Of a DNA stretch of 64,000 nucleotides, positions 6,133-42,939 are shown piece after piece. A program made the translations under genes and the position numbers. The stretch comes from Nemertoderma westbladi (lineage: Eukaryota > Animalia > Xenacoelomorpha), in the NCBI GenBank assembly GCA_032718475.1, contig JAUCBJ010003342.1, positions 1 to 64,000 on the forward strand. The letters are read 5' to 3'. The notes beneath the pieces were generated by a model. It was not told where the DNA came from and did no database searches. It worked only from the letters and a program-made list of their open reading frames with translations. Position 1 is the first letter of the stretch, and every line of letters starts with the position of its first letter.

Positions 6133-6173
6133 TAACTAAATATCAGATCCTAATTTTACAAACTTACCAAAAG

Positions 6174-8434: not shown

Positions 8435-8505
8435 TCCCGACTGGGATTCGAACTCGTAACCTATATGTAATGCAACCAACGCCTTAACCATCTGACCACT
8501 ACGCC
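8435..8505 (-). other. Degenerate tRNA-like / Pol III A-B box sequence in the BEL-A 3' LTR
   Basis: Minus strand reads GGCGTAGTGGTCAGATGGTTAAGGCG...GAGTTCGAATCCC; acceptor stem does not pair. Confidence 0.6.
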
Positions 8506-16000: not shown

Positions 16001-16779
16001 AATAAGGTAAGTGAAAAACCCGTTTCTAGGAGAAAGGTAACACCAGTGTGTTGTACAGACGACGGAGAAAGCCAGACCTCTCAAGAGGAGAACAACGGGA
16101 AAGACACCGAAAGATCTTACTATGTCAACAAAGCACCTAAAGACGTAAGTAAATTTAAGTCTCGAACCAGTGACAGGAGAGAACAGGTAACAAAACTCCT
16201 CCTACGTCTCCTAAGAGAGTTCATGGAAGAAAGCCCGAGGAAAGAACGAGTGTGCACAACAATACCCAAGGTAAAGTAAGTAACATCAAACCAAAATGTG
16301 CATTGTGCGACGGGCCCCACCGTTTAAGTGTGTGTGATGAATTCTTAAAGAAATCCCTAAAAGATAGACGTGATGTCATGTGGGATAAGCGGTTGTGTTA
16401 TAATTGTCTCAGACAAGGACACCAACGGCGAACCTGTTACTCCGATGCGAGGTGTGCTAAGTGCGGCGCGAAACATCATATCTTGTTGCACACCGAATTT
16501 GAAAGAAACAGCACGAGTCAGGTAAGTGAGTCCGAACTACATGTCCAATTCAGTGATATGAACGACACTGACCAAAGTTCTGAGATGGAAGGATTCTACA
16601 CGGACGAATTCTCCGACGAAAACGAATCCTGTTATTTGATAAACACCGCGGTGTATCGAGCGCTTACGTATGAGACTGAAACCGATAACGAAGCGCACCC
16701 GGTTATTCCTGACCGACAACCATCTTGGAAAGCACCAACTCCAACGTCGGAATCCGGGAATTCCCCGTCGTTCAGCTAA
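13041..16779 (+). pseudogene. BEL-B gag (stops and frameshifts)
   Basis: AEAERKA coiled-coil repeats; KFNGD...W and EKLRFLIECLEG (DUF1759-like Pao Gag); knuckles CALCDGPHRLSVC, CYNCLRQGHQRRTC, CAKCGAKHHILLH. Confidence 0.9.
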
Positions 16780-19700
16780 GAGTCCATGGATTAAGTAAGA
16801 GATTTATAGTCCACGCACTCCTGGACTCCGGCAGCACAGGAACGTTCATCGATAAAGAACTAGCTGAAGACATCTTTGCAGGACAACCCAAGTTCCGAAC
16901 TAAGTTGAACCTTTCAGGAATTATGCAGGTTTGGAAATCTACAGTAGCTACAGACTACTATGTAGGCGCGTTGTCCACTCCCCAAGATGAACTAGGAGAA
17001 CACAGCATAAGGTCAGTAAAAATGGTGGCGATAAAGAACTTTGCTACCAGCCAAGTAGAACCTTACAACTGGGATGAAGACGATTTTACCCAGCAACATA
17101 ATATCCCTAGATTCAACACCGACTACCCAGGGGTGCAAATATTAATCGGCCAAAATGCGCATGAGGCGCTTGAGACATTAGAGAAACGACCTGCTCGACC
17201 GCAACCATTGCAAACCTATGCGGGAAGAACTAGAGTAGGTTGGTACTTCACTGGACCTTCCCGTAGAACGCTCATGGAAAGATTACCCACTGAACAAATC
17301 CATCAGATGAGTGAATGGGAAGAAGAAATCAGTGAGGGAGTAATCACACCTGAGGGAACACCATACTCCTCAGATAACGACGATATTACCCAACTATTTG
17401 ACGAGGAAAATATGATAGACCTCCTCACTGAAAGTGAAGCTTGGAGAAACCAAGTGCACCTTTGCCATCTCGTCTATCATGGCGGACAACTCAACTATGA
17501 CGATGAGCTAAATGAGGTGATAGATCGACATAACACTAAGATTCGCGACGAACACGCCGTACGATTCTTTACTCAAGAAGCTGTAGAGCCTAATTCCTAC
17601 GACAAAGCACTATCGGTCGAGGAGGAAAGAGCCAAGCAGATCCAGGCAACGACTACACGTTTCCTTAGAGATTAAGGGAGGTATGAGATTGGTCTGCCAT
17701 TCCGAAAGCAAGAACCTAATTTTATAAATAACCGACCCTTGACGGATAAAAGAATCGCGCAACTACATCGACGCCTTATGGCAAATGCTTCAGCTAAAGA
17801 GATGTACAAGACACAGCTGAAGAAATTCATCGATAAGGGATATGCGGAGCGAGTACCTGAAGAAACACCCATAACTGAGAGAATGTATTATTTAACCCAT
17901 TATTACGTTCCCAAACCTGGTAAACCCAACAAAGTTCGGGTAGTATTTGACGGCTCCGCCGTTTACATGGGCCAATTCCTTAACTCGGAGTTGTTGCCGG
18001 GACCCAACTTACTCCAATCCTTGTTGGGAATACTCTTAAGATTACGGCAATATTCGATCGCCTTCGCCTCGGATATAGAAGGCATGTTCTTACAAGTTAA
18101 GGCGCTGGAAAGGGATCGAGACAGCCTGCGATTACTGTGGTGGCCTGAAGGAGACCTCAGCCAAAAACCTGTGGAGTACTGGATGACCATCCAGGCTTTC
18201 GGAATCATCTCGAGCCCCTCAAACGCCTGTTCAGTAGTGCGCACCACTGCTGATGACAACCGAGACGCCTTCTCTAAAGCGGTTATCGACAACATCAAAC
18301 GGGATATATACATGGACGATAATTTAAAGTCCCTCCCATTGGTGGAAGAAGCCATTGATGTTGCCAAGGGAACGGTAGAGTGTTTGAAATGTGGTGGATT
18401 TCGACTAATCAAATTCACTAGTAACTCCCGTGAGTTTCAGGGATTGATCCCGGTAGAAGACCGAGGAGTTAAAGACCTGGACCTAATCAAGGACGATCTT
18501 CCAGAAACTAAGACGCTTGGTTTGAAATGGGACACGGAGAGAGATATCCTGTTTTTCCAGCTAAAACAGCGAGATAATCCAGTTCGAACTAAACGGATTT
18601 GTCTAAGTATCCTGAGCACTTATTTCGATCCATTGGGATTTATTAGCCCAGTTATATTGGTTGCTCGGAGTTTAGTTCAACAAATGTGGCTTGAAAACCA
18701 CTCGTGGGACGATCCACTTAAGGGAGAACGACTAAAGAAGTGGATGAAATGGGAAGATTCTCTACCATCCATCGAGAACTTTACGATTTCCCGTTCATAT
18801 TTTGGTCATGTTCTCCCCACGTATTCCTATCAACTCCATGTGTTTGGAGATGCCAGCGATATGGGAATAGGTATAGTAGCCTACCAGAGAGTTGAAACTC
18901 CGGATGGAATTAAAGTCGCCTTGGTTACCTCTAAGGCCTTGATAAACAACAAGCTACGAGTTCCTCGAGCGGAGTTAAAGGCGGCTCTATATGCTACAGC
19001 CATCGGCCGGAATGTCACAGAACAGATGACTATCCACTGGAGAAAACTGTCTATTGGACTGATGCTTTACTCGTTTTGGAGTATATAACCAATGAAGTCT
19101 GTCAGTTCAGCGTCTTCGTTGCCAACAGAGTAGCCGTTATACTTAGTCGCACTAGTGTAGATCAATGGAGACATTGCCCTGGGACAATTAATCCAGCCAA
19201 CATCGCCTCCAGAGGAGCAACTCCTCAAGAACTGGTAGACACTCCAGACTGGTTAGGTGGACCCGACTTCCTAAGTAAAGAAGAAGATGAATGGCCTCCT
19301 CATCTTACCACAGCTGAGATTAGACAAGCCAAGGGAGCGGAGAAAGTCAAACCTAAAACCCGGACGAGTAAATCGAAGTTATTTAAACCCGTGATAGATC
19401 TGTCTGTACTACATATTTCCGGAGACGACGCTGTGGATCTAAACTCCCCCGCCACAAATAAGTCTGTTGTGGAAATCAGAGAGAGAGACTGGAAATCTGG
19501 AACACCAGACGTTTCGCAGGGACTCTCACCTCTCCTACAGAGAGCGATACATCACTATAGCTCCTGGAATCGGCTTTGTAAGGCCATTGTATATTTAAAG
19601 CGATGCTTTCATCATCACTACTCCAGGACGAAGATCGCTAGTGATACCGCTCCACTGACATCTGTGCAGGTCCATGCTATTAAAGATCTTCCCAAATATA

Positions 19701-21146
19701 AAATCTCAGATAGGTTTCTGACGGAGAAGATCAGTTACCAGGAGCATGAAGAAACCAATAAGCAGATACTGAGACTCCTGCAATGCTATGAAGATTCCGA
19801 TAAGTATTTCCTGTTGTTGAGAAATCCACAGATGCGCTTAAGGGATCGTTTCTCTAGCACAATGATAGATGGGTTAATACGTATTGGAGGGAGACTAACT
19901 AATGCTCCATTATCCTTTGACACTAAGTTTCCCATACTCATTAGAAATATTGAAATACAAATCAAGATGATTGTAGATGTTCACAGTAAGCTTTAACCAT
20001 GCTGGTAGAGAACGAGTTCTTAGCGAAATTCGAACTCGCTATTATTTTCATAAACCACGTAGAGCTCTGAACCAAGTTCTTAGGAACTGTATACCCTGTA
20101 GGAAAGCATTCAGTAGGCCTTTAACACAGCGAGAGGCAGAATTACTTAGGGAACGAGTAAGCTTCTATGAACCACCCTTTACTAATACCGGTGTGGATTT
20201 ATTTGGCCCTATTGAAGTATATCGTGCCAGGACTATAGTCAAGCGATGATGTGTCATCTTTGTCTTTATGACTTGTAGAGCAATCCATTTAGATATGGTG
20301 AACGATCTATCTACCAACAGCTTCATACTGAGTCTATGCCGACAGATCACTCGCTTTGGAACTAGCAACACGATGAGATCTGATAAGGGGACGAACTTCA
20401 TTGGCACCAATAATGAGATCAAGGCTTACGTTAGAGATTGGAACCAAAGACAGGTGGACGATCAGCTAAGGGTAACAGCATCTAGCTGGACATTCAACGC
20501 ATAAGAAGCATGAAGACCGCATTTCACTTTATAGTGCCGTGACGCGTGTATCTCACCGACGAACTTTTGCGGACGTTAATGGAAGAAATTGCCACCTATC
20601 TTAACGAAAGACCGCTTATGCCAGTCTCATCGAGTCCCGACTCCCTGGAAGCGCTAACACCCGCGCACTTCCTACTGAAGAAACCTGTAGCAATGCTCCC
20701 ACGATCGGAAATCACGGACGGAGACGAATACTGCCGACAAACTTGGCAACTTATGCGGTTATTATCCCGTCATTTCGCTGACCATTTCGAAAAACATTAT
20801 CTGCCTACGCTACAACTTCGAACCAAGTAGTTTGCGCAGCAAGAAAACGTCAGCGCTGGAGATTATTGTGGAAACAGATCCTCCACGTAAGCGGTGGCAG
20901 ACAGGTCGTATCATCGAGACTCATATCTCAGATGACGGTTTAGGGCGATCGGTAGAACTCGTCGTCATGCGACGTAACTTTAAGAAACCTGGAATTGTAT
21001 TCGAAACACAGCAGCTCAATCGCCCAGTTGGTCGTTTATGTTTACTGGAAAGAGACAGAGAACTGTCCGGAAACTATGGAAGGCAAGATACTCTTCCCAC
21101 GACCACCTCCCTAATCCAACAAACATCTAGGGACTCCCCAACGTAA
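16725..21146 (+). pseudogene. BEL-B pol: protease, RT, RNase H, integrase (disrupted)
   Basis: LLDSGS; KVRVVFD, GPNL, DIEGMF, YMDD; FGDAS, PRAEL, WRHCPG; GVDLFGP, SDKGTNF, LNERPL, LTPAHFL. Confidence 0.95.
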
Positions 21147-22650
21147 TAGCGTCTGGAGTGGGTGTATGACCATATTATTTTATATTCGTTTTTATTATTT
21201 TTATATTTAGGTATGTATTATTATGTAATTTTATAATAATCATTTTCTTTAATTTTATTTAGTAGAATGTTATTTTAGCGATTATTTAGTAGATTAGTGC
21301 AATATATACTCGTGTTTATTACTTAATTACTTATATTATATATTTAGTGCAACGGCGAGAAATAATTCTTTTCTTACTGTCCGTATCATATTATAAATAC
21401 GTGACTACAGTAAGATGAAATGTCCGTACTTATTAAAGTACAATAAAGCTCCTACTATACTCAAGTATTATTGGTAAGTAGAGTATTAGGAATGCAAAGT
21501 TCAGATCCTCGTGTCTCGGCTAAACCAAGCTCTGGGTAGACCTTGGAAACGACTTGCCTCTTCTCACTGACATTGCTTCTTGCAATATTGCTCTCATACC
21601 GTATATTAAATAATACATATAGTAACGTGATGTCCCTTTAACAGTAGCGTACAACGCAAATAAATCTGTTAAACCCTTTGACCATCTGTAATTCTAGTCG
21701 ATTAAGATATCGCGGCACCCACCGACAAAATTCTAGAATCAGTGGTTAACGTCCCCAGACATGTTCTGGAATAAATCGGTGCCCATCTTAAATATTACAT
21801 AGTTAATATTTATAAAAATCTATTAAAACAAATGTTATAATAGAGTAAATGCACGCAAATAAACTCTAAGGAGTTTGTAAACCGAGAAAATCTATAAATC
21901 AAGATCTGTTAAAATTTAGATCCTTTAAAAATTCTAGTCGATTAAGATATCGTAGCACTTACCGATTCTCTTAAAAGGACAAATTTCCTAGAATCAAGGA
22001 TCCTAGTCCCCAGACATGCTCTGGAATAAAATTGTGCCTATTTTAATATTGAATAATAAAATTTACGGGAATAAATTTAAATTCATATCCTTTCATGAAT
22101 TTGATAAATTGTTATTTTATACAATTTATAAAATTCCCAAAATTCAATTAATTAATAGATCATGGGAGCGGAGATTCACCCTATTAAGTATATTAGTGTG
22201 CGAGAATCTCCAATATATAGTCAATAGTCGATAAAATTCATAAAATCATGTATAAAGGGGAATATTGACAATTAAAGAATTACTATTAAATAGCATCCCA
22301 GATCTGTATGCATGAGAATTACCCTAATTCTACTGCTAGCTTTCCATAATGTCACCATAGCAACAACCACGCTAGAATTAGAAGCGAGTTAAAAGAACAA
22401 TAGAAAGCTTGCCCCATTGAATAGCATACGGAATAAATAGCGCACTGCTAGTATCCAAGGATACATAATAATAACGTGGCATTCTGGAAGGTACTTGACT
22501 AACGGACAAATAGCCCGAATGTGTACAATTTGTGACAGTTGTGTGGAGTTTGTGCGTTTATAGGTGAATGTTGCTACTAAAGTGTGTTTACAGTAGCTAG
22601 TCGCAGTTGTGAAAGTAGCCCTAACTCTGCAGTGAGAACCTGAAGTAAAT

Positions 22651-22815
22651 CTAAGCCCTTGGGTCGGACAGTGGAGTGACTCGCGCTGGTTATTATTGTC
22701 GTTGTGTAGCTACTACGTTGGCGATAGACACCACGACAACAGTATATCGGCGCTGAGGATCTTGCGCTGTCCGGGGGCCGTGAGGGGTAGGCAGCGACGC
22801 CCACTAGCCTAATTA
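22651..22815 (+). ncRNA. Putative structured RNA element, copy 2, 37 nt upstream of the ORF2 ATG
   Basis: Same stems as 315-476 with compensatory or wobble changes. Confidence 0.55.
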
Positions 22816-22852
22816 TAATTAATTATAATATTGATAAACTCATATAGCAGCT

Positions 22853-25800
22853 ATGACTGAGTTGATAAAAGATGATCTTGATATCAGGGAGCGATATACC
22901 CTACCATTGCAAGCGTTTGTTGATAGTTTAATACGCGGTGACGCTAGTCCCTCTACAACGGAGGACGATGGCCATTATATCGAACTGCCAATGTCCAAGG
23001 AACAACTCACGCATGAATTGGACTATAGAAAATTAACCGTTCGCTATACGCATCGTAATGGTACGTATATGGACTTCTTAACTACTGGCCATCCTATCGA
23101 TTTACACGATACGGACGATGTAGACACCGAAAGGGAAATGGTTCTCTTTAAATATCATACCCAGCGGAGTCGGAACGATAAACTGAGAATCGAACACGAG
23201 AACTCTATTCGAAACCGACTTGAAAGAGAAGACGTTGAAGAGCCGGATAAACGCAGCGACTTCAACGAATATCTGGAATTCTTCAGAGAAACATATCTCA
23301 ATATTGCCAGCCAACAAAATCTAGAAACTCGATATCCTCAAGGTAAACATCATGATCCTATGATAGAACTCAAACGGCTCTATTTCACTATGATGTACCT
23401 TACCGCCGATCGACCCTACCTGTTGTCCCGGATAGCTTCGAACAGATGGAGGAATATTGTAAAACTGGAGAACGGTCACCCGCGTTTCCTCTACAGGACA
23501 TGCATCTATGGTATTACTGCGATGAATGCCCTAGACCCAACCAACAAACGGAAAGACATAAACATCCGCGGAGACGTTGCGCTAAACACAGTTTTACTCG
23601 CTATACTTACGGGAGTTTCAAGTGAAACTTGTTCGACGTGTCACCTACGATTGCTCGACTCAAACGATCCTTGAATAAACCCATGATCAGAGTTCCGGAA
23701 TACTCGGTCAGACCCCCTCATTCCCTAGTGAGACCTCAAACTCTTGATCCTAATAGTATAATGGATCCTCCTGAACTGTATTCACTATTCAAAGATCTTG
23801 TGTTACCCGAACAATTAATCGGTGGCACTTCGGTAGTGGGCTCGCTAGATATTCGCCCATCCTACCTAGCCGGATTAGGACGCGGACATCTAATATCGCC
23901 GTTCAACCCATACAATCATCCTGGGTTAACCCCAATACAACCCGTCACCGAAGTCGAGGAGAGCGTTGTACGAAACGCGTTAGACACTATTCGACAGAAG
24001 ATTGGAAAAGGAACTTACAATTGTTTGGAGAAATGCAAGTTGCAGCAACAAGTCCAAGCGGTGAAGGAGTTGGCCTTACCCCAGTTCGATCGAGAAATCC
24101 AGAACCTCGAGGAAGACATCGAACTTGGACGAACCTATTCTCTACAAGAGTTTTTAGACGAACGCTTACAACGACAAGCGGAGGAAAATCAGCTCGAGGA
24201 GAAACACATCGAAATGGATGAAAGAGAAGAAGCAGCTTTAGCCCAACCCAAAGCTCAAATCCTTATGACGGATCTCTACTCCAAAACCATCATTCATCCC
24301 TCGATGGTTCCCCATTTCGGAGATAAACTCTTCGCAACGGTACAACCCCAACCAGTTGATATCAACCTACGATCTCGAGATCTTATCGCTGACGCTCCTA
24401 TGTTACAGCGTCATGTCAATCTAACTCAATATTATATGGTAAAACCGGAAGATCCTACACATAGTCTAAGGTTTCTACCACTAATAAATCCTCTCGATCT
24501 TGTCGAACTCGAGCAACTGCAGAAACATCTGGATCAGTTAGTGAAAGTAAACTCATTCCGAAAACCTTACAATTTTTCCAGAATAGAGAAGGATATAATA
24601 CCTCCGTATAATCTCGATGGAATTATCAAAACTCGATTAGTCCACTGGAATCTCGACGTGTTATTTGAGGAGGAGAGAATACAATGATATGGAGATGTAG
24701 AGACGTATACTACACAGTATCTGAAGTATAGGGATCTACCTAACGCTAGCGAATGCGCCACCTTGTGGCATCCAGTGGGGATGACCCTAGAAAACACCAC
24801 TAAGGAGTGGAACGAAACTCTTAACGTTATCGAAATGTATGGAGTTGTCACTTACGATAACGAAGGTAGCGTTCCGGTTGGAGAACTGGGAACTACGCGC
24901 ATGATACATATACGAGGACTAGCTGGTTCTACCCACGTATTTACTCGAGCGTGTTCCGACATGGTTGATTATTCTTTTGAGACACTCACCGAGATACAAA
25001 AGAAACTCCGACATGGACAATTCGAACTCGCGCAGCGTTACGTCACCGACACCGAGCGCAAATTGGCCATGGGTATCGATGGATCGATGTTACCTCAACC
25101 CGTGCTCGAGATGTTGTTTAACGAAAGAATCCTTAAAATCGGCTCAGCTGTTTATGGAGATCTCTAAAACGACTTTAGGAACATGGAGAATATCCCTTAT
25201 CCTTTCGTAGATTCACCTGATTGCTCCCTGGGCAGAAGGCCGAGGTTTCTTCCAAACTACGTATGCCAATACACCCAGCGGCATCAACAAAGTACAACGA
25301 ACCTCCATCGGACATCTTGCCTTTCAAGAATACGGATGGAATTTCAAAGTCGGAAACCCTATCAACTATCAACAAATATATGGAGATCATTATTCTCAAT
25401 TATACTTTGACGGACCATTAACTGCACCTGGCGTCGTGTATAGCTTCATGAGTGTTCCACTTCGTCCCTCATTAGCTATATACACTATCTTCGAAAACGC
25501 CGCACTTGTCGGTTGGCTAGCCGATGTGTGCAGTCGTACTATAAGCGCCCATCCCTTAATACTTGGAACCAAACTCACCAAGCTAGATGAACACAATAAA
25601 TTCATCTGTTTCGAATGCTTCAGGCGCTTTCTGACTCCGTTCCGCAACGTTGATAGTCAGTTCAAGGACCGCACTCTGACCAAGCTCAGCCTAAGAGACT
25701 CAGCTGCTGAGAAGTTAGACAGCGCTGGATTCGCCATTTTCAAGGATGTTTGTATACAGAACTTACATTCCTCTGTTATACAAAGACCTCTAATCCCCAC

Positions 25801-26899
25801 GGGTTATTCTATCGTGGAAGTTCAGACACTGGGTTTGCTTGAGGAGACAGCTACACCTACTTCAGCTATGTAATTGGAAGACGAACCAATATGCTTAGAA
25901 TCCGAGGAGATTCAGCCCACAACACCCCGGAGTAGTGACAACGACTACGTCCTGGAATGGTATCAGGGTCCACAATGTCTCACTGCGTACGACTATCGAC
26001 ACGCCAATTATGTCTCTAGGAAACGTTGTCGATTATGCGCAACTCGAGACCATTTCACTCCTTTAGACTCCAACGTACCCTGCTCCTACTTCCATGAACA
26101 GCCTACTATGGAGATCTATTGTGCGTATTGTAGACTCAATAACCTGCACATTTTCTCAGTCTGCCCCCAATTTATGACTCAATGCCATCATTGTCAGTTT
26201 AAAGGACATGCAAGTTTTGATTGCCCTTTCAACCGCGATCTGGAAAGCGTAGATGAAATGATTACCCTGCGCTACATCCGAGCCTGGGAAGCGAACGCGG
26301 ATTTACATTGTGAGTCACGTCATCGCTATTACCCTGGACGCGCCTACCAAGGAGTTTATGCGTTCCACCCTTATCTATTCGCATCTATTGAACAAAAATC
26401 TCGCACACCGAGTTACGAACTAATAAAGCGTGTTGGTGAGAGTATTTCAACCAAATTTGTTCGTAAATATCTCAGGAACATTAATCCCAACGATCTTAAT
26501 TCCTATAACTTGATCAACTTCATTCGTCAAGATCCGGAATATGGCGATTTGTTCATCAACTCGCATCCAGAGCTACAGGAAGTTCATAGGCGACCCTATG
26601 AATATAGAGCCCGAGAACGCGAGTTAGAAAGAACCATCAAACTGAGGAAATTTCTCACTACTCATGGTCCACCTACCGCTCTCGTGCAAACGACTCGTCA
26701 GGGACCAGTAAGAGCTGCTATACTGAAACGCGCTCTGAAGGTTGTTCGACCTCGCTCCACTGAGGTTGATATCGATCAACAGGGTACCTCGACCGGCGGA
26801 TACACCGACCATAATCCTAAACCTTCTGATGCAATTGTATTGCACCCTTCACCCAGGAGTTATAGCCCTCCTAGTAAAGTGACTCGCACCAAAGAGTAA
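22853..26899 (+). pseudogene. BEL-B accessory ORF2: DEDDy-like exonuclease + 3 CCHC knuckles (fragmented)
   Basis: YDNEG (24853); LPQPVLEMLFNERILKIGSAVYGDL; YTIFE; CRLCATRDH, CAYCRLNNLHIFSVC, CHHCQFKGHASFDC; colinear with BEL-A ORF2. Confidence 0.8.
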
Positions 26900-27034
26900 A
26901 GGACTCTTGCTAGCCTCAAAAAACTACGTAAACGCCGTCTGCGTAAGAAAGACTAACTGTTTAGAGTATTTTTATATTTTAGAAACTGTGATTTTTTATA
27001 TTTTATAGAATTAAATCCCATTTTCTGGGAGCGG

Positions 27035-28202
27035 TGTAAAAGCTTTTGCGGATATAACCAGTCATTTTTCTCCGCAATGAACTGTTTAGTTGTTTTAGTG
27101 GACATAACATGCCATTTTCTCCGCAATGTACCCTGTAGGTGTTTTAGCGGACATAACAAGCCATTTTATGCCGCAATACGCCAAATACTCTAAATAGAGT
27201 GTAGTTCAGATGACGAAATCTGTCAGCTGATTTACTGTCGGTGTGGAACTTTCTTTGTTCGGCTCGCTCGATCAATCAGAGCGATTTTCATTTTATTTTG
27301 CACAGAGGCCTATGGAAAACCGCGCAATGCATGATGGTCTTTGTTTACCTTTCTGAGCGAGAACAACTGCTTGGAAATTATTCTGTGCTTCTGTGTTAGA
27401 AGTTTCAGACTTTGGCCAACAATAGACGGCTTTGATTATAAAAACGTAAATCTATTAACTGGCCGGGATCTCTGCATCACCTGGCAAACCAAACTCTGCA
27501 TTCACGCAATCCTATTCACCGCATTATTTTACTGCTATTTACTGTCGGTTATTAATTGTACATGTTGATGGATATGTTGTTATATTTGGAGAATATCGAT
27601 AAATAATCATAAAACCCCAATCTTCTTGATTACTAAAGGTTAGAGAGACCGGTTACCGGTAGCAATTGCGACTTACATTACAGTGGTTTTAGTGTGCATT
27701 AAATGCTATTTCATAATCCCTACATGTGTCAGTTGCTATCCTCCTTATATATGATCAAATTCAGTGACGGTCGGCAGATCAGTGTGCAGCAGTGTGAAGT
27801 CGTATGCAGCAGTGTGACAGATAATAAAGCATCTCCTAAAGAATGCGCCATTTACTAAAATCAATAGCCATCTTGTTGTGTTTAGTATAAGTCTTAACTC
27901 TGTTTTATACTTAAAGCGCCACGTCCTAAAGGAACTGTTAATATTTCCCCGAAAGTGAATAATATTGTCAGAGATTATATAGTAACTATCAATCAAATAA
28001 TACTGTAGGTCTGCACCGCAATCCCTTCAAAGCATCCGAATCCAGTCTCCCTTAACCGTGGGTGAATGATCGCGCATTGACTGGCTTCGGCTAATGTTAC
28101 TTCATGTGCATTAAATAATTGTTATAGGCTAAAGTCGATTTATAAACAAGAGGACACCTAAAATTGGCAGGTTAAACTGCTAAAGGTCTGAAAGCACGAA
28201 CA
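27035..28202 (+). repeat. BEL-B 3' LTR
   Basis: Copy of 9968-11139, preceded by the PPT and followed by the TSD. Confidence 0.96.
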
Positions 28203-31200
28203 CTTGTTCACCACAGTTTGAAAGTTCCAAGTATTCTTGTTGTCGGGGTGTACCTGTAGAAAGTAGTCCCGCACAACTTTAAATCTGCTATCCAGTGGCA
28301 ATATATCCAGCACCTCCAAAAGTTCGTCGTATTGAGGCATAGCTGACACGTATCCTTCCTTCGACATTATGAGAGGGTTTACGGCCCAAAATCCCAAATG
28401 TGCTCTCATAGGGAAACGGCATCGCTGCGTTGATACATGCTCGTCTGCTAGATTCTCCCAATGGTCGAATAGCTGTCGAACGATTTTAACTGACATGTGC
28501 TCATAGGGGACGTCTCTAAGTTGACATTCGGATGCCCTATGGCCTTTAATATTACAATACGTGCACTGCGGCACGAAACGCCAGCAAGTGTAGAAAGTGT
28601 GCGAATGCTGATCCCCGCACCGGTTGCATACTAAGTCCGGTAGAGATATGTGTTTCGCTCCGCATTTCTTTGCGTGGTGGCCAGTTGCCCCGCATCTGCC
28701 ACAAATAGTGTTGGCAGGATACCAAACTCGCTCATAGATAAGATCTCCGATGGGGCGAGCGCTACCGTCCACGTGATAATTCTCATCATCCGGGTCAGTC
28801 GGTATGTTCGTCTCCGTGGGTTGTACACAAACCATGGCATCGCTTTTCTCCAACTCGCGTATCTCAGTTCGCATCTTCCTCGGAAGGTTCTCCTCTATCT
28901 CTATGAGTTGCCGCAATGGTTCGTCTATTATCGCCAACTCGGTTGAATCCACATCGTTGTGATGGGCGGTAGGCTCGCGAGCCTTCCAGGATCCTTCCGG
29001 GCCTTTGAATTCCGCGTGGCGTTCCCCGTCATAGGGTACTAACGTTAACATCGACGGTCTGTCGACTAGGCTTCCCGCGTGAGTGAGATAGACATCCCAG
29101 AAAATGCTAAGTCCCGCTCGCGTGAAAACTTCGCAGTGCGCATCGGTGTTATAAAAGGGTTGGCGAAATCGTCGGAATACATCAGTATGCGTCCTTCCTC
29201 TGTCGTAAAAGGTATGTCCTTCACCGAGACATAACGGATGTCGCTTTAGGGTCCTAGACACTACATCGGCGATGAAGCAAACGTTGACCGAAGATTCTAT
29301 CGCCAAATAGTATTGCAAGATTATTTGTGGAGGTGAAGTAATCGCCCAGTACACGCAACCTCGCCACTTTAGCTGTGACTCGAACTCGTTTACGCTGGGG
29401 GTATCTCCCTCTCCGTATACGTCCGTGTATTTGCTCCTCTTACTCTCCTTATAATCCCAACTGAACATTAGATATGAGATATAACCCGTCCCAGTTTTTA
29501 GTGTGTTATACTCCCTAAAATATCCTTGCTCAATAGCCCAAAGCAACAATGGTCTAGTATCCATGTATGGCGTAGGCAATCGATCCTCTTCCGTGGGCAT
29601 CCCTGCGAAATCGCTAATAAGGTCATCCCGTACACCGGATCCGATCTTGACAATGCTCTTGTCCAACACAACATCTCGCACGGCCTTTGGTAACATCCTA
29701 GCTTCTATGCTACAAGCCAGGTCCATGGATTTAACTATCCGTTTTATCATCGCGTGTCTTTGCGTCGTTCCTTCCGGCATAGGCATCTTTCTATCGCTCC
29801 TCTGTCGGCTGAAGACATGTAACACGCCATCTTGTGCTCTAATCTGTATAGTCTTCGAAGTGAGGCTTTGCTGATGGCTTCCTCCTTCATTATTGTAAAA
29901 CATGTAACCATTCTCCTTCAGAGATCGGCTAGTCACGTCCCAATCGTCGAGTAAATCGTCGGTAGGGTTCCAAATTCTCCCAATCATCTTTTCATCATCG
30001 AAGCTAATAGGTTTACCGGTCCAATTGGTCCTGATATCGGTGTCGGTCTCAAACTTCCGACTCCGATCCACAATCGAATCGTTTTCGTCAGATACCCTCG
30101 CAAGATGCAAGGTGCGATATCCATCCCCGCACGATCCACTTCCTTAAAGTCCGTAATATGTGGAGGCATGTTGCGTACGATTTTCTGAACTATTGTTCTA
30201 CGCAACTCGGCTGACTCTAACACATCACCATAGGTAACCGATGGGAGGAAATCCAGGTTCGAAATTATCTCTGGGTGTTCAACTATAGGAATCTCATAAG
30301 TTGTCTCCTTCCGGGTCGGTATACTAATAGGAAAGCTAGTTGGTCTTGCAACCGGTACTATCGTTCCAGCAGAATGGGGCTGAGGTTCTCGCGTCATCTC
30401 GACATGAGGTATCTGTAGTCTCTGCGACAAACGCTGAGCAAAGGTGATACTATCGAAGAGCTCGGGTGTCATCTCCTTAGGTTTGGTTTGATCGTGGGAT
30501 ATCCAATAGAATGGTAGGCTCGCGAGCCTTCCGCCTAACTCCTCGATCTCGCCTTTCTCGTACGCCTTGTACGCCCTGTAGAGGCTCAAAGCTTCCCGTT
30601 TCTCTTGCGTCGACTTATTAGACTCATCCACTACCATGCTGTAGACGTCTGGTTCGACTAATTTAGGTTCGTAAATAACGATCTCACCCGCGTTCGGTCC
30701 ACTCATCTTAAATGAATGATACGGATTCGTCAAAGGGTATCCGCCTTCTTGGTAACGTAGACTTTGGTGGTATGAGCATCGCGCTAATATCGGCTCGGGG
30801 TTCTCCGAGTTCAACCGCATAGGAATCGCATTGTCTTGCTCACGCATACATGCTCCACATTTGTAAAACAGTTTGTATATGGAGAACGCGTCCTTTGTCT
30901 CTGGATCTGCTATAAAGATGCATTCCTTCGAATTCGTCTCTGGCTGCAGGTAAGGGTTCATTTACCGTCAAATATTGCAGCATATGATATAATCGGCGTA
31001 TCTCTGTGTCTGGATCCTCACAAATGTCACTAGCGTCGCATAACGCATCGTAAGGATATAACGCATTGAACTCCGCGCGTAATTCCTCCGTTCTTTTGTT
31101 ATAAGCATCCAATCGCTGTTTATTCACATTCGGGTCCGCCTTGGATTTAGCGAGCTTGGCTGTACTCCTAGCCATACTCTCCACTCCAAACACACTAAAG

Positions 31201-31292
31201 TTTTTAGCTCCATAACGATTAAACGGCGCCTGGTGCTCTTGTTCCTGCGTAAACCCCTGACGTAACTCCTTATAAATCTTCTCCGCCATCAT
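28203..31292 (-). pseudogene. BEL-A accessory ORF2, N-terminal and central part: DEDDy-like exonuclease + 3 CCHC knuckles
   Basis: ORFs 31292-30840, 30961-29984 and 30110-28203. YNNEG; LPKAVRDVVLDKSIVKIGSGVRDDL; YLAIE; CGRCGATGHHAKKC, CNRCGDQHSHTFYTC, CTYCNIKGHRASEC. Confidence 0.8.
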
Positions 31293-33889
31293 ATACGCAT
31301 ATATATGGTTACATATCGTTACGTTTCTACTAGATGAAACACAAAATAGAGGTTAGATGTGAGGTGACTTAGAGTTTGTCGGCTTTTGGCTCAACTTTGC
31401 TCTAAAACCCCAACCCATTTGCCTAATGACTTCGGGTTCGCGTGATTTCGCACTGGCTCCTAATCCAAAAAAAAATTGTGCCGATAAAAAACGAATTCCG
31501 GGTAAACTAGCCGCGAGTCTAAAATACTCATCTTTTAATTTCCCAAACTACATTCCCAAAGAAATAATGCAGTCGAGAATTAATTCGGTCTAAATAATAG
31601 TAGACACGACTACGTAGAACAAGGCCGATTTTCTTTTTCCAAAAAAATTTATCGGTAGGCTCGCAAGCCTTCCATCCGCTCTTGTCCTCCCCAATTTTAA
31701 CTTCTATCTAGCTGTATTCTAGAATTCGCATTCACTGGAGAATCATTTTTCTTAAATTTAAATCCAACTAAATGGATTTGTCTAATAATTTTTGAAAATT
31801 GTCTCACTTGTGGGTTCCAAGTGGAATTCCATTCCTACTGTACACACAATCCCGCTCCTATGTGATACATAAGGGTACTACCCTCCATGTTCACATATAA
31901 AGACAATGGAATTCCACTGCTGTCTCTATCTACAGTGAAGAGGATTACAAATGCACATACAGTAATACAAAATACTAAATTACTAAAATATGGTAGGTCT
32001 ATGTGGCGGCCAACAAAGGTCCCACATCTCTATTTACTAATATTGGGTGGAGATTTGTAGTCTCCTGTCTCGTTTCTAGTCTCCTCAAGGAGTACGAGAC
32101 GTTGTACAGGTCTGTCTGCGGTACGTCCGTCGATAGTCCTTACAGTAACTGTCCTTACTACACCAGATGTAGGGTGCGTGGTCAAAATGACTCCAGTCAG
32201 CCAAAACCGTCTTTTCAGATTGGCTTCAGCCAATAAAACATGGTCACCGCGTCTCAAACATCGGGTATCAAGATACCAAGAGGTTCTGGTTGAAATAGAG
32301 GCCAAATAATATTTCTGCCATATTTCCCAGAATTTATTTGCAAGTAATTGAGTGATTTTCCAAGCCTTGTTGCCGTATCCATCGCTATTAACGGCTACCG
32401 AAATGGGCAACAATGTCGTCGGCGCCTGCATAAGCAGGTGCGCTGGTGTCAAGGCAAACTGTGCGTCGTTATTGTCTGGGATCAAAGCGATCGGTCTAGT
32501 GTTTAAAATCGCTTCGATTTCTATTAGTAACGTCGTCAGTTGATCGTCTGTCAATATGTGTTGCGTCGGTATTACTTTAGCCATAGCTGTCTTAATCGAG
32601 CCAATCAGCCTTTCCCAAATGCCGCCTCTCCACGGACTGTCTGGAGTATTAAAATACCAAACAATACGGTGAGGATGTAGTTCCTCGGAAATCTGGTTTT
32701 GGTCCAACTTCTTTAAAGCTCTGGTTATTTTGTTCTGTGCACCCACAAAGTTTGTCCCTTGGTCACAATAAATGGATTTGACCAATCCACATCTAGCGAT
32801 AAATCGCCGTAAGACTAGGATAAAGGCATTGGTGGTTAAATCTGTCACATGCTCTATATGGACAGCTCTGCTGGCCATGCAAGTGAAGATCAATCCCCAA
32901 CGTTTTACCTGTACCCTTCCGCGTTTCGCGATTATGGGTCCAAAACAGTCTATCCCTGTCTCAGTGAAAGGGGGGCTAAATGTCTGAAATCTCGCTAGTG
33001 GTAGTTCACTCATTTCTTGGTGTCCTATCCTCGCGTGCACCTTCTTACAAATCATACAGTTCCATGTTACCGAACTCAGTGCCTTACTAGGTCTAATCAG
33101 TACAAACCTCGATCGTAAGTGTGATAGACAGTGATGTCTACCCACGTGTTTGAGTTGTACATGTGCGTCCAGTATCATAGCGCGCTGTAATTCATGGTGT
33201 TGCGGTATGATGATAGGATACCTAAAGTCTAGTGCAAAGTCGATGTTTTGGAGTCTGGACTTGTGACAAAGTAAGCCCCGGTAAATAATCGGACTCCAAC
33301 TCAAAATCGGTGAAGACTTGATCTATTTACCTTGGTTGATCGCTGTGAACTCTCGTGCGAAATATCGCAATTGATAATGTCTAATGATATCAACTTCACA
33401 ATGACTAACTTCCTTTAAGGTAAGTCTTCTCGGAAAGTCGCGTTTGCCTCTGGCATATTGTCTCAAACGTTTGAGCCATGCTAACTTGCGGCACGCGTCA
33501 GTCCATGATCTAGTTAGGTTCACTATCATGTCAACGTAAGTGTTAGTGACGTCATCAGGTATGGTGTAGTCATAGTGTGGATACTTGTTTGGACTTGGTA
33601 GGCCCGCGGGCCTTCCGGTAGGTTTGTCTGAGTCCCCATGTATGTCAATCTCTACGGTCTTACCTTTACCGTCCGCATCTAGTGAGTCGACTGGCAGTAA
33701 CGGTTTCAACTCTATAGTCTTAGTGTGTTCCTGTGAGCCTGTAAGCTTCCTAACCTTAGTCACACGTTTACCTGTAGGTGGTAAGTCAAGTCTTTGAGCG
33801 GAGTGTGATCGCTGTGGCCACACCTTTGTCGTCCAAAGAAGTCAAATTTGGTAAGTTTCTAAATGTCCGCTCCAATGGGTCTTCTACTG

Positions 33890-34340
33890 GAGTGTCTAGT
33901 AGACAGTCTGGAGAAGCGTCCGGTGAACAGTCTGGTGAGACGTCTGGTGAGACATAGCGCGGAACATCCGGCGAAATGTCCTGTCGTCGGTCCCAAAGAA
34001 AGTCAGGCATAACTTCTGTCAGAAAGTCTGGTCTAAAGTCTGGTCCAATGTCTGGTCCAAAGTCTGGTCCAAAGTCTGGTGGACAGTCTGTCGAGATGTC
34101 TGGTGGAAAGTCTGGTGAGACGTCCGGTAGACAATCTGTCGAGAGTTCCATAAAACAATCTGGCGAGCAATCCGGAGAACAATCTGGTGTCGCTTCTGGT
34201 GAATAATCTGGCGAGTAATCTGGTGAACAATTCGGCGAAACGTCTGGTGAAATCTCCCGCGGAACATCCGGTGAAAGATTCGTACAAGCGTCTGGTCGAG
34301 AGTCTGGTGAGACGTCTGGCGTAATGTCAGGTCTAGTGTC
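33890..34340 (-). repeat. Degenerate 12-bp coding repeat (PDxS)n in the RNase H-integrase linker
   Basis: SPDV/SPDC/GPDF tetrapeptides in ORF 33786-34562. Confidence 0.85.
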
Positions 34341-35695
34341 CAGGTCATCAGATTTCGTCCGTCCTTGTTTCCTCTTGACCTTGGCGTTGGCTTTCGCTTT
34401 AGATTTGACAACCTTGTCGATTTTTATCTCGGCACCCTCTGGTATGGTATTGGTTGTCGCGTCGAATAACGGTGGCCATTCGTCTGATGGTCGCTGTAGG
34501 AAATCGGGTCCTCTAAACCAAAAGGATTTATTGTCTGGTTTACAAAAGTCAAGCGGTTGCATCCCCCGTGACGCGAAGTCAGCTCGGTTCAGCTTCCCTG
34601 GACAGTGATGCCAATCTTGTTTGAGAGACTGGTCTAATATTTCAGCCCGTCTGTTGGCTATGAAAGTCTTGAACTAAAACGCTTCGTTGTTTATGTACCA
34701 AATTACCAACGTCACATCCGTCCAATATGTGACCTTCAAGTTAGCCTCCAGCTCGCGTTGAACTAGACTGACAATATCGGTGGATATCGTCCCGGCTTGC
34801 AGCTCTCCACGAGGTACAGTCATATACTTCAACGGCATTGTTCTAGCCCTAGAAGTAACGAGAGACACATCGTAGCTGTCCGATGTCACTTGTCGTCTAA
34901 GGTATAAAGTAACCCCCAATCCATCCTTGCTAGCGTCACTAAAGCTGTGAAGCTCTAAATCGGCAGGAAAGGTGGTCTGCAAAGGAAAGTATACCCTCGG
35001 TATGGTATAGTCTTGTAGGAACGTCAGTTGGGCTTCCCAGTCCCTCCATTGCTCAGCTAACTTTTCTGTGATGGGGTCGTCCCATTCCAGTCCGGCTTGC
35101 CAAATGCTGCGGAGTATGATCCTAGCATGTAGGAACACTGGACTAATGAAACACAATGGGTCATACAATCGACTCATGGTCGATAAGCAAGTCCTCTTAG
35201 TGAGAGGTCTAGTCTGGTCGTTGGACCTTACACGTACCCTAAAATTGTCGGTGTTAGGGTCCCAACTAAGTCCTAATACTTTGGTCGTCGGTAGAGGTTC
35301 TAGGTCTAAGTCCAAGTCACCTCCACTACGATCAGTCGGGTCAAATGAGTTCACTAGTTCGGATTCGTTGGAAGCGAACTTCGTCAGGCGGAATCCACCC
35401 TCAGCGAGACAATCCTGGAGTTGGTGTGCTACGGTTGTAGCGCGCTACAAAGCGTCACAACTCTTGAGTCCGTCATCCACGTAGAAATCTCGTTCCACTG
35501 TCCGAACTACTTCTGGGTCAAATTGGTCTCGTCTGTCCAATGCGGTCTGCTTTAAGGCGTACATGGTGCAGTTGGGGCTGTCCCTGGCTCCGAAAACTCT
35601 TACCTGCATTTGGTAAGTTTCTGGCGGAAGTTCTAAATTTCCGTCCAGATACCAAAGAAACCTCAAGCTGTCCCTGTCCTGCTCCAAAGCCTTAA

Positions 35696-37265
35696 CCCTA
35701 TTAAACCCGGGGGGGGGGGGGTCAATATGACCCCTTCCGTGGTTTTTTTATTATAATTCTGAAACAGACGCAGTTGGGAATCTGATACTTTATGACTTTT
35801 CCTAAAAATCTATTGTCTTCCTAATAGTGAAAACCGTTTTCAAAAATATTGGGTAGTTTTCGAGTTATAGCACAATTTTTTAACCCTACTTTTGGCACTT
35901 TTTTTGAGACGTTTTTTGAAAATTACATTTCATTAAATATGAATTGTAACATCTCTATTTTTGATTTACACCGGTTTTTTGGTGTTAGCAATAGGATAGA
36001 ATTCATATAAATCGATTTAGAAATTTCAAACTTGTTTTTTTCGGTGGGTGCCAAATTTTGGTGCCAGCACCAAATTTTGAAATATGTCAATTTTGTAAAT
36101 TGATTGTTTGAAACTTGTTTTTGACGCAATTGGGGTTTTTTGGGGTTCTGGTTTCGATGGAATATATACGAGTTGCACCAAGCGTATCAAACTTGTATTT
36201 TTCGGTGCTGTGTGCAAATTTTGGTGCTAGCACGAAATTTTGAAAATCCATTTAATAGATAAAATTGCTTTTGACAATTTATTTCTTGCGTTTTAGAGGT
36301 TTATGGCTGTTCTGAATTCAATGGAATATATAATTATCGAACTAGACATCTAAAACTTGTATTTTTCGGAAGTGGGTGCAAAATGTGGTGCTAGCACCAA
36401 ATTTTGGAAATCATCAAATATATCAATTTATTGTGTCACCTTGTTTCTTGCGTTATACGGGTTTGTGAGGGTTCTGAATTCAATGGAACCAGTAAAAATT
36501 TCATAAGAGTTTTCAAACTTGTATTTTTCGCCGGTGGGTGAAAATTGTTGTGCCAGCACCAAATTTTGGAAAATAAGCAAATTGATCAGTAGATATAATC
36601 ATCTTGTTTCTTGCGTTATACGGGTTTATGCGGGTCCTGAATCCGATGGAATCAATAAAAACAGCACTGGACATCGCAAACTTGTACTTTTTGGTGATGG
36701 GTACGAAATTTGGTGCTAGCACCAAAATTTGCCAAATTACGCCGAAAAATACACGTAGCAATGATCTGGCATATTAGAAATGTATTCCATTAGAATCAGC
36801 GCCCTAGAAAACCTGAAAATGTGAATTTATAGCATCGTATAAGTGAATTAAAAATTTTGTGTTCTAACTGAAAAGTGCTGGTTACTTGTTTTTTTCATTT
36901 TTTTCCTACTCAGAGAGGACTAAAGAGCCATTTATAGTAATCATATCATTTTTAAATATTTTCCAATGTATTTTGCGCCCCAGAAAACCTGTATTGAAAA
37001 ACAATTAGCCGAAAAATGTAACTTTAAAATTTTGTGAAAATTGTGCACTACTTGTAATTTTGGTGCTGCAATATTACCATCCCAGTACATTTTTTCGAAA
37101 ACTTTTTTTTCGGTCGGATCCAGACTAGTGATACCTACGTACAAACAAAAAATCAGACGTTTTCGTTAATATTTGTAGATTTTAGAGGGAGGGGTCAATA
37201 TGACCCCCCCCCCCCCCCCCCCCCCCGGTATTTGTACAGCATTTTATAGCCCGGTACTAATAGGG
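35696..37265. mobile_element. piggyBac-type non-autonomous element (1570 bp), TTAA TSD
   Basis: TTAA-CCCTATTA...TAATAGGG-TTAA; subterminal GGGGTCAATATGACCCC; internal GCACCAAATTTT repeats; removal restores the RT frame. Confidence 0.93.
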
Positions 37266-37671
37266 TTAACCTGGTGAAACATGGCCTCTACGTCACAGGT
37301 GAAAGCCACTTTGCGTTGTCTAAAACGCATTAGGACTCCCATGAGGTAATTATTCATATTCGGCCCGTCAATCAATTCGCTGTTCATAGACATCCCTTGG
37401 TAAAGCGCTGCGCAGTCGTTGACTACACGCACCCTGCCAGGTTTGTCTGGGTGTCGAACAAAATGATGTGGCAGGTAATATGTCTGATCTGTGGTTACCT
37501 CGGGATTTAACATCCTAATGGCGTATCCCTTTTGGAGATACGTCTGAAGTTGCGCATTGTATTGCATATGGGCCGTCTCGTCTCGCAACAATCGCTGCCT
37601 TATTGATTTGAGTCGCCTCAAAGCAAGCGGGTAATTGTTAACGAGTTTAGGTTGTCCATTGCGCCATAAGG

Positions 37672-39655
37672 TAGTTGGATAAGGTGGTTGGCGGGTTCGC
37701 GTCCGGCGTATTACCTTTTGTCTCATTTGTTGGGGTCTAGAATCTACGATTCTCCGTTGTTCGGTAGGCTTGTAAGCCTTCCACGAAGTCGTAGGTCTCG
37801 TTAAACGTTGTTCGATCCTGCGGGTACTACCCACATCCGTCCTCCTCCGTTGTTCGGTAGGCTCGCAAGCCTTCCACGAAGTCGTAGGTTGCGTCGAACA
37901 TTGTGTCAAAGGTCGAGTAAAGTAGTCGGGTTTCGTAGTCGGTCTATAAATAACTGGGTTCGCACAGCACATCATAGGTTTAACTGCTAACGGCTTACTT
38001 ACCTGTTTAATTGTCATAAACGCAGGTTCCTCTCTCCCTACAAGTAGACTACGACTTACTGTAGGTGGACTAGATACATTACCTGCTAAAATTGGCGATG
38101 AAGTTGCCCTAGGTTGCGGTAATTCCGTCACAACAAACCTGTTACCTTGCGTCGAGTGCACGGGTGTTAATTCCTTAGGTTTCGTAACATAGACCAGTTT
38201 TATCGGAGTCGTGGGTTTGAGCATAGGAATCACTTGTGGAAAACGTTCACAGTAATCCTCGACGAACTCATCTCTTCGATCCATCGCTCCAACACTTCCT
38301 TCGTCGATTCGCTTCTGTATCCCGCGATATCAAACTTCCAGGTGATCCAGGGCAGACAAATCGTGTCCAGCTCGCGATCTTATAGATCTATCTCTTGCGT
38401 CGAGGTCCGCTTGCGCGTTCGCTGTCTCGCGCAATATTCGATTCAGTTCGAACTGTAGTTGCATCTCCCTTTCACGTCGATCTGCTACTTGTTGTTGTGC
38501 CGCTAACTCCGCTTCTTGTATAGCTAGTCGAGTGTTAATCTGTCTCACTTCCATCTTGGTGCGAGAGTCAGATGCCGCTTTCTTCCGAGCCAACTCCGCC
38601 GCGTTTACTGTCGCAACTCGTGCTAATTCGTCGGCTGCAGCTTCTCGTGCCAAATCTTCCTCCAATCTTCTTAACTCCAAGGCGTCGACTTCTGCTTGCG
38701 CTTTGAGTTGCGCAATCTTCGCCTCGTTTTCTCTTTGCTGTTTCTCTCCCTCGATGGCGATCTGTGCCATCTGTCGTTGCGTTTCTTCCTCGAAGACTTG
38801 TTGTCGGCGTGCAACTTCCTGTTGTTGTTGAGTAATGTCAGACGCTGTTCTACTATCGTCGCCATTCTCGCTCCGCATGCTAACGAATGATCTATCCATC
38901 GGTGGATTTTGGTAGACTCGCGAGCCTTCCATAGTGAGAACTTCCGTCGTCCCTCGCGGTTCGAATTCCGGTTCTTCGATCGGTACGCCGTTTCTACGAA
39001 GAAAATTGGTGAGTGTCTCCAACCTCCCGTCCAGGCAATAAGGTTCTTCTTCCTCTTCGGGTTGTAACAATGCGTCCAAAACTGACTCACCTAGCAGTTG
39101 GTCAAACTGCTCCTGTTGAGCCAATATTATTACTGACTTAAACTGGATAATGCTTTCTCTCGCACTTACCAACTTATCTATTATCTTTACCTGAGTAAAG
39201 TTGTCTCCACGCAACTCTGCGAGTTCGTGTAAACCTTTCAGTTTATCTACGGAGGCATGTACCCTACTTTCTATCCTTACCTGTAAGGTGTAGAACTCGT
39301 ATCTCGACATCGGGGCGGTTAACTCGCGTAAAACGCGAAAAACTTCTCCGAGGTTTCGAGTAATCTGGGCCATGTGTCCTCCTATACTTCTAATGACATT
39401 TTCTTGGCTTCCCGCCAAGCTTACCATGTCTGGTTCCCGTGACCTGGTCTGCGGGACTGTAAGGAAATCCTCGATCCTGCCGTCGCCACGCATTGCGGCT
39501 TCCGGTATTTCCGTTCGGGGTACCGGCGACACACGCGGTGTGACATTGGTGGAATCTCGGGTTCTCCTTCTCAGTTCGTCTACTGTTGATCTGTCCGGGT
39601 CGCACGAGTCATAGTCGGTAGGGGGGTATCGAGTCGAATGTGGTGTGTCACTCAT
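37672..39655 (-). pseudogene. BEL-A gag N-terminal part; capsid/knuckle region and protease absent
   Basis: Coiled-coil-rich ORFs 39655-38330 and 38284 onward run directly into the RT N-terminus (LWRNGQPKLVNNY). Confidence 0.75.
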
Positions 39656-40185
39656 GTCTTATTATATACATCAAGTACGGGTAATAAAATGTCAAAATAT
39701 CTGAATGCTGAAATGTCAAACTTACCTTTGTATATATATAGTATATATATACCCAAACCGGTACAAATAAATCAACAAAGTCAGAATGTCGAAATGTCAA
39801 AATGACCAAATGTCAAACTTACCTTGATATATATATATACCATATATATACCCTAACCGGTACAAATAAAACTAACAAAGTATATAATAAAATATGTAAT
39901 AATCTAGCCTACCGGCTAAATTTGTACGAATAAGTGAGATAACGGTTTACGTTACCAAAATGTAGATCAACAAGTACAAATAATAGGGAAAACAGCAACG
40001 TCTAACGGGAAAAATAAGTACCAACAACACTACTAATTAGACAGTGAAACCCACAAATTTTGAGTACTACTGTGCTTTCTAAGTTTGAACGACACGAGTC
40101 GTAAAACTTACGCTCCTTTGATCTTCCAGTCGTACAAATTCCCAAATACAAACCGGACGTGGGTCGTTCCGTTTTTCGGTGGCGC

Positions 40186-42780: not shown

Positions 42781-42939
42781 CTACCCAATAATTTTGAAAA
42801 CGGTTTTCACTCCTAGGAAGACAATAGATTTTTAGGAAAAGTCATAAAATTTCAGATTCCCAACTGCGTTTGTTTCAGAATTATAATAAAAAAACCACGG
42901 TGGGGGTCATATTGACCCCACCCCCCTGGTTTAATAGGG
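42781..42939. mobile_element. Terminal fragment of the same piggyBac-type MITE family; insertion target of BEL-A
   Basis: Reverse complement of about 35696-35857; ends TAATAGGG followed by TTAA. Confidence 0.9.

Follow-up and report, generated by a model that had tools for sequence, protein, structure and literature searches.

The ICTV profile of the Belpaoviridae lists gag, pol and env-like genes (PMC8742986). In the stretch of Nemertoderma westbladi DNA analysed here (64,000 nucleotides, hereafter the window), two BEL/Pao elements, BEL-A and BEL-B, each carry a long additional open reading frame (ORF2) that follows pol at the env position. Which kind of protein does ORF2 encode, and what could it do for the element? 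An initial annotation of the sequence had proposed a DEDDy 3'-5' exonuclease followed by three zinc knuckles. The coordinates, strands, nesting and motif blocks that it quoted were all found in the sequence; its reading of the catalytic site was not.

Two nested BEL/Pao elements of separate families

Self-comparison of the window showed that BEL-B, on the plus strand, sits within the extra ORF of BEL-A, which lies on the minus strand. BEL-B is 18,235 bp long and has the 5-bp duplication CTTGT at both flanks. Its 5' LTR (9968-11139, +), just preceded by the target duplication, and its 3' LTR (27035-28202, +), followed by it, are 96.0% identical and have TGT...ACA ends. A purine tract ending GGGAGCGG stands before the 3' LTR. 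The gag-pol region in between lies in broken frames (12990-21146, +) and comprises DUF1759, a knuckle, protease, RT, Peptidase_A17/RNase H, integrase and DUF5641. BEL-A has a 5' LTR of about 2.1 kb (40651-42781, -), a broken and interrupted gag-pol region (32030-39658, -) with RT, Peptidase_A17/RNase H, integrase and DUF5641, and a 3' LTR (4662-8645, -) with a purine tract just upstream. Both its pol and its 3' LTR are interrupted by later insertions, which split the LTR. The LTR pair of BEL-A is 96-99% identical across four or more pieces, its outer ends being less clear. The purine tracts of both elements terminate in GGAGCGG. Where a tRNA primer-binding site would follow the 5' LTR, no TGG start was seen in BEL-B, and in BEL-A a candidate TGG is found near the LTR end.

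When the pol regions were searched with Pfam, Peptidase_A17 (PF05380) was matched in BEL-B (E 9.5e-34) and BEL-A (E 1.7e-40), DUF5641 in both and DUF1759 in BEL-B. The order from protease through RT and RNase H to integrase, the Pao-type RT/RNase H region, the paired LTRs and the target-site duplication place the elements in BEL/Pao. At 41-46% identity between the RT/RNase H pieces, and with unrelated LTRs that match each other at E 1.1 at best, BEL-A and BEL-B represent old, separate families.

Both elements carry a homologous ORF2

The ORF2 of BEL-B spans 1,349 codons (22853-26899, +), with frame changes near 23600 and 25210 and stops ending at 24687, 25167 and 25873. The ORF2 of BEL-A spans 1,248 codons in two parts. 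The main part (28203-31292, -) has frame changes near 30900 and 30050 and is open for 647 codons from 30143 to the BEL-B insertion, and the part beyond the insertion (9309-9967, -) has one stop (9675) and encodes an R/P/S-rich tail. In both elements ORF2 is placed between pol and the 3' LTR, starting 1,707 bases after the end of pol in BEL-B and 738 in BEL-A, in agreement with the annotated ORF of about 1,200-1,350 codons inside the LTRs. Stops and frame changes disrupt both copies in the window; we infer that in intact copies the pieces form one ORF.

An all-against-all BLASTP comparison of the frame pieces gave three colinear blocks in the C-terminal half, with 32%, 30% and 25% identity (E 9e-13, 6e-18 and 3e-15, respectively). 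A short N-terminal block, DP..E..RLY, was matched at E 0.002 and exceeded 200 of 200 shuffles. In the middle of the N-terminal half the similarity was at the level of composition, its score being reached by 21 of 200 shuffles, and the R/P/S-rich tails had no homology past composition (33-181 of 200). The annotated homology of the two proteins therefore holds for the three C-terminal blocks and the N-terminal block, but not for the middle of the N-terminal half or the tails.

ORF2 encodes zinc knuckles and is not an env gene

Downstream of the middle domain, both ORF2s have three C-C-H-C clusters followed by a conserved WE..AD.H domain. In BEL-B the knuckles lie at 26027-26224 and the region with the domain extends over 26027-26545 (+); in BEL-A the knuckles lie at 28703-28524 within 28203-28703 (-). 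The three clusters were annotated correctly as such, but the canonical spacing CX2CX4HX4C was found in only two of three knuckles in BEL-A and one of three in BEL-B, and the Pfam knuckle matches in ORF2 were below cut-off.

The env-like ORFs of BEL/Pao elements, the F-like protein of roo and the Chuviridae-like glycoproteins, share the position of ORF2 (PMC8742986 and the accessible text of PMC13524379). ORF2 differs from them. No transmembrane helix was seen, the 19-residue hydropathy maximum being 1.48 over the 11 ORF2 pieces, and the Pfam search of ORF2 matched no glycoprotein family. For these two reasons we conclude, as had been proposed, that ORF2 is not env; a signal peptide, a transmembrane anchor and fusogen homology, by which an env protein is recognised, were not found in it.

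The middle domain likely has a DEDDy exonuclease fold

The exonuclease-like domain extends over 24757-25585 (+) in BEL-B, with the ExoI residues D 24856 and E 24862 and the ExoII residue D 25159. In BEL-A it extends over 29190-29978 (-), with N 29894 and E 29888 in ExoI and D 29624 in ExoII. A putative ExoIII was placed by alignment and by eye at Y 25481 and E 25493 (+) in BEL-B and at Y 29309 and E 29297 (-) in BEL-A.

Profile searches did not recognise the domain. Pfam, PHROG and NCBIfam gave no exonuclease match even at E 10, so that the proposed check against the PF01612 profile came out negative, and no exonuclease-domain match was found among the PDB sequences. Our own HMMs, derived from 20 PF01612 proteins of bacteria, reached E 2-5 only, though at the expected places, and HHalign gave the exonuclease profile a probability of 2.5%. 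Two AlphaFold models had a mean pLDDT of 31 and 38, too low for meaningful fold searches, and neither showed nor contradicted an RNase H-like fold.

The ESM Atlas pointed to the family that had been named. Residues 50-370 of BEL-A matched a 'Werner syndrome-like exonuclease' cluster at 0.92; 24 of 30 matches fell in the WRN-like PF01612 set, and all 10 named matches belonged to one clan. The top two rows (0.93 and 0.92) had no name, PF01612 was present on 38% of the WRN-like cluster, and the shared-feature count of 156 was below the 170 typical for true family members.

We then used a block test in which eight ungapped blocks from the 20 bacterial PF01612 proteins were placed in order with free insertions. 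Fourteen of these references we take to be WRN/EXD2-like, by clustering and known motifs, and six RNase D-like. BEL-B was read with X at its breaks. BEL-A scored 32.7 (reached by 1 of 200 shuffles) and BEL-B 36.0 (0 of 200), corresponding to z 3.4-3.7. Reversed sequences scored 1.7 and 7.8, the 16 decoys from the window at most 18.5, and true members 135-210. When only the four blocks that run from ExoI through ExoII were used, z rose to 4.1-4.6 with 0 of 150 shuffles in all six settings for both BEL-A and BEL-B; this subset was chosen afterwards, and the two proteins are relatives and hence not independent tests. The ExoI-ExoII blocks landed on the motifs named in the initial annotation, in the order of a DEDDy/PF01612 domain: the ExoI strand, two further strands and the ExoII helix-strand block. 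The four blocks beyond ExoII scored no better than shuffles, and the test did not pick YxxxE as ExoIII.

The middle domain might instead have another fold, ORF2 being some other conserved knuckle protein, for instance a second nucleocapsid-like protein or a scaffold, that shows the motifs by chance. The negative or inconclusive profile searches and structure models fit this, as does the half after ExoII, which the block test left without support. However, the ESM Atlas and the block test independently indicate a family that had been named beforehand, and a separate knuckle protein, P0003 (see below), has the motifs at the same place. We consider another fold rather unlikely. These comparisons make a DEDDy fold of the WRN/RNase D type likely for the middle domain of ORF2, although profiles, HHalign and AlphaFold did not confirm it. 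By its profile and its tetrad the domain falls outside the family; it probably works like, and derives from, a DEDDy exonuclease.

A remote relative with the same layout

A scan of 1.84 billion proteins with ORF2 gave two matches, both over the knuckle region. P0003, a protein of 1,027 residues and a cluster mate of one of them, matched the knuckles and the WE.LAD.H domain of BEL-A at E 5e-9. Upstream it has SIDFE, LPARLREFL...GSGIDNHD and YLYFD, and it ends in an R/S/P-rich tail, a layout as in the BEL ORF2s. P0003 thus appears to carry a full D-E-D-Y-D site ahead of its knuckles. Its best ESM Atlas hit, a lead only, was a Euglenozoa cluster with PF01612 and zf-CCHC (0.86).

One of the two MAFFT modes kept BEL-A, BEL-B, P0003 and the references in register at ExoI and ExoII. 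It also set the YxxxE of the two BEL proteins against the P0003 motif YxxxD, a few columns away from where the references have ExoIII. In the second mode the motifs fell out of register. Pairwise, the P0003 domain had no significant similarity to BEL-A or BEL-B, and in the block test P0003 reached z 0.5. The genomic context of P0003 was looked for and not found.

The ORF2 domain of family A evolves under purifying selection

The stretch was present in five of the six listed DNA runs of one organism, which come from three studies and include no RNA run. In four runs, between 711 and 51,987 contigs per run matched positions 21000-33500 and covered all 30 bins, and therefore both families are multi-copy. 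Of 32 pieces among more than 100,000 contig pieces, 25 lay inside the two ORF2s, and 17 of these 25 were gap-free. One of these, 684 nt long, had 124 differences and another, 552 nt long, had 97; several were about 18-20% diverged.

The BEL-A domain (29250-29930) was then compared with two runs from two studies. At a share of at least 30% of the depth, 26 differences and no indels were observed. Twenty-one of the 26 were synonymous and 20 fell at third codon positions, whereas 32.5% synonymous changes were expected from all possible transitions (p 6e-7). The rough dN/dS of 0.11, which compares this copy with the bulk of family A, is not tree-based and refers to family A only, is far from the neutral value that had been named as a refutation. 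Since 21 of 26 common differences are synonymous, the ORF2 domain of family A is under purifying selection.

These data bear on the idea that the elements once picked up a host fragment and carry it along passively as ORF2. The breaks in both copies of the window would suit it, and deletion forms that lack 2.4-2.7 kb of the BEL-B ORF2 occur in the runs. The synonymous excess in family A largely refutes it, however. In addition, the position is kept in two families with such diverged RTs and unrelated LTRs, and protein searches with ORF2 found no close cellular relative, so that we regard a mere passenger as highly improbable. Taken together, our results support that ORF2 is an old accessory module, distinct from env, which two diverged BEL/Pao families have retained, as the initial annotation had suggested.

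The catalytic site is altered

The motifs had been annotated as the established DxE, D and YxxxD. Instead, BEL-A reads N-x-E, D and YxxxE (N-E-D-E) and BEL-B D-x-E, D and YxxxE (D-E-D-E), and neither has the canonical D-E-D-D tetrad. The five site codons of BEL-A showed no variant at a share of at least 30% in the two runs, and N-E-D-E is thus the state of family A and not a decay of this copy. The D-E-D-E of BEL-B is known from this one broken copy. Asn or Glu substitutions at such sites do not always abolish activity. Trypanosoma brucei RNase D (TbRND) binds both of its metal ions through the first Asp and the A-site ion through the last (accessible text of PMC7797062). Since Asn replaces this first Asp in family A, its domain is predicted, by analogy with TbRND, to be dead or weak as a nuclease. 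The BEL-B domain may cut weakly, as judged from its residues.

ORF2 could nevertheless be a 3'-5' exoribonuclease that is active despite its variant site (D-E-D-E in BEL-B) and trims the 3' ends of element RNA or of host small RNAs, family A being either active or a derived dead lineage. Four acidic residues and the tyrosine are still present in BEL-B, P0003 appears to hold the full set, the DEED variant of a rotifer ORF3 is described as intact (accessible text of PMC5408684), and TbRND is an active exonuclease with CCHC knuckles. However, family A has Asn at the position that contacts both metals in TbRND and is yet under strong purifying selection, so that selection does not require the first Asp. 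The altered site speaks against a nuclease of the standard, active kind, and an active trimmer seems to us a real but minor possibility.

The altered site, most so in family A, also argues against the annotated proofreading role, in which the domain would proofread or trim DNA during reverse transcription or integration and enable an unusually long genome, as ExoN does in nidoviruses. BEL-B is indeed long, 18.2 kb compared with the 4.2-10 kb of the ICTV profile (PMC8742986), and for the DEDD nucleases found in the DNA transposons Dada and KolobokD an action on DNA ends has been proposed (accessible text of PMC3706591 and PMC9587614). But ORF2 itself and non-coding DNA make up much of the extra length, and the domain lies in a separate ORF 0.7-1.7 kb past pol, tied to knuckles. 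According to file 9 of PMC3118150, the longest elements of each superfamily measure 16-23 kb; the file already lists BEL/Pao lengths of up to 21-23 kb, their content not being given there. Proofreading is thus very unlikely.

Comparison with known systems

Exonuclease-like ORFs at the env position are already known. Juno and Vesta of bdelloid rotifers are LTR elements with Ty3/gypsy affinity. Together with the Athena/Terminon elements they carry an RNase D-like DEDDy ORF3 with a DEED variant, for which the authors propose functions in 3'-end processing and in connection with silencing and draw a parallel to inactive EXD1/Maelstrom (accessible text of PMC5408684). Like ORF2, this ORF follows pol at the env position, has no transmembrane segment and has a variant tetrad. 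Unlike ORF2, it is described there as restricted to rotifer-specific lineages, with its residues intact and no triple knuckle reported, and 'Pao' does not occur as an element name in that text. The BEL/Pao ORF2, likened to it by description, has about 1,300 codons, three knuckles with WE..AD.H, N-E-D-E or D-E-D-E, and measured selection.

In TbRND (PDB 7C42), as probably in ORF2, an RNase D-type domain precedes tandem CCHC knuckles, which in TbRND bind RNA and contact its body, but TbRND is a cellular, mitochondrial and active enzyme with four knuckles and a full DEDD site (accessible text of PMC7797062). Its sequence matched BEL-A at E 8 over the knuckles only, and we use it as a working analogy, not as a sign of membership. 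EXD1, Exuperantia and Egalitarian are DEDD-fold RNA binders whose catalytic site is lost or dispensable and which are helped by an adjacent basic module (accessible text of bioRxiv 10.1101/2025.08.03.668247). They are host genes without knuckles and are likewise compared by description.

The accessible parts of PMC3118150 and PMC13524379 do not contain the word 'exonuclease', and those of PMC6431247, PMC6338049 and PMC7968707 hold no BEL/Pao case of a DEDD ORF. Our search, confined to the open literature, found no exonuclease ORF on a BEL/Pao element. An exonuclease at the env position is thus not undescribed; the BEL/Pao host, the three knuckles and the altered, selected site are what we regard as new.

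A possible role in RNA binding

We tentatively propose, with a little less than even confidence, that ORF2 is a non-envelope accessory gene that combines a WRN/RNase D-type fold with altered metal-binding residues and three knuckles, and that it serves mainly in RNA binding rather than as a nuclease. The knuckles and the basic tail would hold single-stranded RNA, and the exonuclease-like pocket would seat the RNA 3' end, on the model of TbRND. With Asn at the first acidic position family A would not cut, and BEL-B perhaps weakly; the role may not depend on cutting, a situation seen in Egalitarian, Exuperantia and EXD1. Because a retrotransposon retains only what aids its spread, the target would likely be its own RNA or small RNAs aimed at the element, which is the least certain step. 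Our best guess is that the ORF2 protein would protect this transcript against RNA decay or silencing by the host.

A more specific version, which we consider doubtful, is that a BEL/Pao lineage encodes an EXD1/Nibbler-like counter-defence. The module would cap or sequester the 3' ends of small RNAs or transcripts and so blunt piRNA/siRNA silencing, having drifted from an active, P0003-like enzyme to the selected pseudonuclease of family A. If true, this would be an animal retrotransposon silencing suppressor made from the fold of the host pathway itself.

The extra ORFs of BEL/Pao elements in the publications considered here are env-like, whereas in this window a conserved non-env cargo with a likely nuclease fold, under selection in family A, occurs in two old families of one animal genome at high copy number. 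DEDD cargo would then extend beyond rotifer elements, and it may be of use without cutting. Since the open 647-codon piece of BEL-A holds the whole domain and the knuckles, RNA binding and activity are directly testable, and with them the question whether counter-silencing proteins are among the products of animal LTR elements.

The knuckle module in protein P0001, and primer sites

The exonuclease-like domain of ORF2, the extra gene after pol in BEL-A and BEL-B, is followed by three zinc knuckles and a WE..AD.H domain. In the protein P0001, a triple-knuckle plus FE.FAD.G domain is present in two copies, downstream of a degenerate exonuclease-like N-terminus. When this N-terminus was scored against shuffles with ordered ungapped blocks from 20 bacterial PF01612 proteins, it reached z 2.3. 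No Pfam family was found for the knuckle-helical module.

A TGG-type primer site was absent after the 5' LTR of BEL-B (11140-11165). A 10-nt complement was observed at LTR position 414 of this element and is present in both LTRs, a result that 17 of 300 shuffles reach. BEL-A (40650-40622) showed no such complement.

Other elements and repeats in the window

A third LTR element, of the Ty3/gypsy type (946-4290, plus strand), encodes knuckles, a protease-like motif and the integrase H2C2 and rve domains. Where its RT region belongs stands an in-frame tandem array of SDIT repeats with a 12-bp period (about 2384-2990, plus strand). In-frame 12-bp repeats with SPDx units were also observed in the RNase H-integrase interval of BEL-A pol (33883-34276, minus strand), and their period resembles that of the SDIT array.

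Inverted-repeat elements were located at 5217-6132 inside the 3' LTR of BEL-A, at 35692-35857 with 42780-42943, and at 43880-44637; one of them is related to an insertion in BEL-A pol, and all are likely DNA transposons or MITEs. The right part of the window contains tandem arrays with units of 44 bp (48800-50469), 21 bp (53017-53520), about 75 bp (57206-57779) and 78 bp (62762-64000). The minus strand of the 78-bp array carries an open frame, and the array also has internal inverted symmetry.

Deletion forms of BEL-B ORF2 and its upstream region

Contigs from several runs skip 2.4-2.7 kb of BEL-B ORF2 (window 23221-26802), including the exonuclease-like domain; they are deletion derivatives at low depth. 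Upstream of this ORF2, a 170-bp piece (22648-22818) shares 87% identity with sequence that precedes the gypsy gag at the start of the window (312-479). The summed contig depth peaks in the non-coding region 21000-22700, which suggests a more widely shared repeat.
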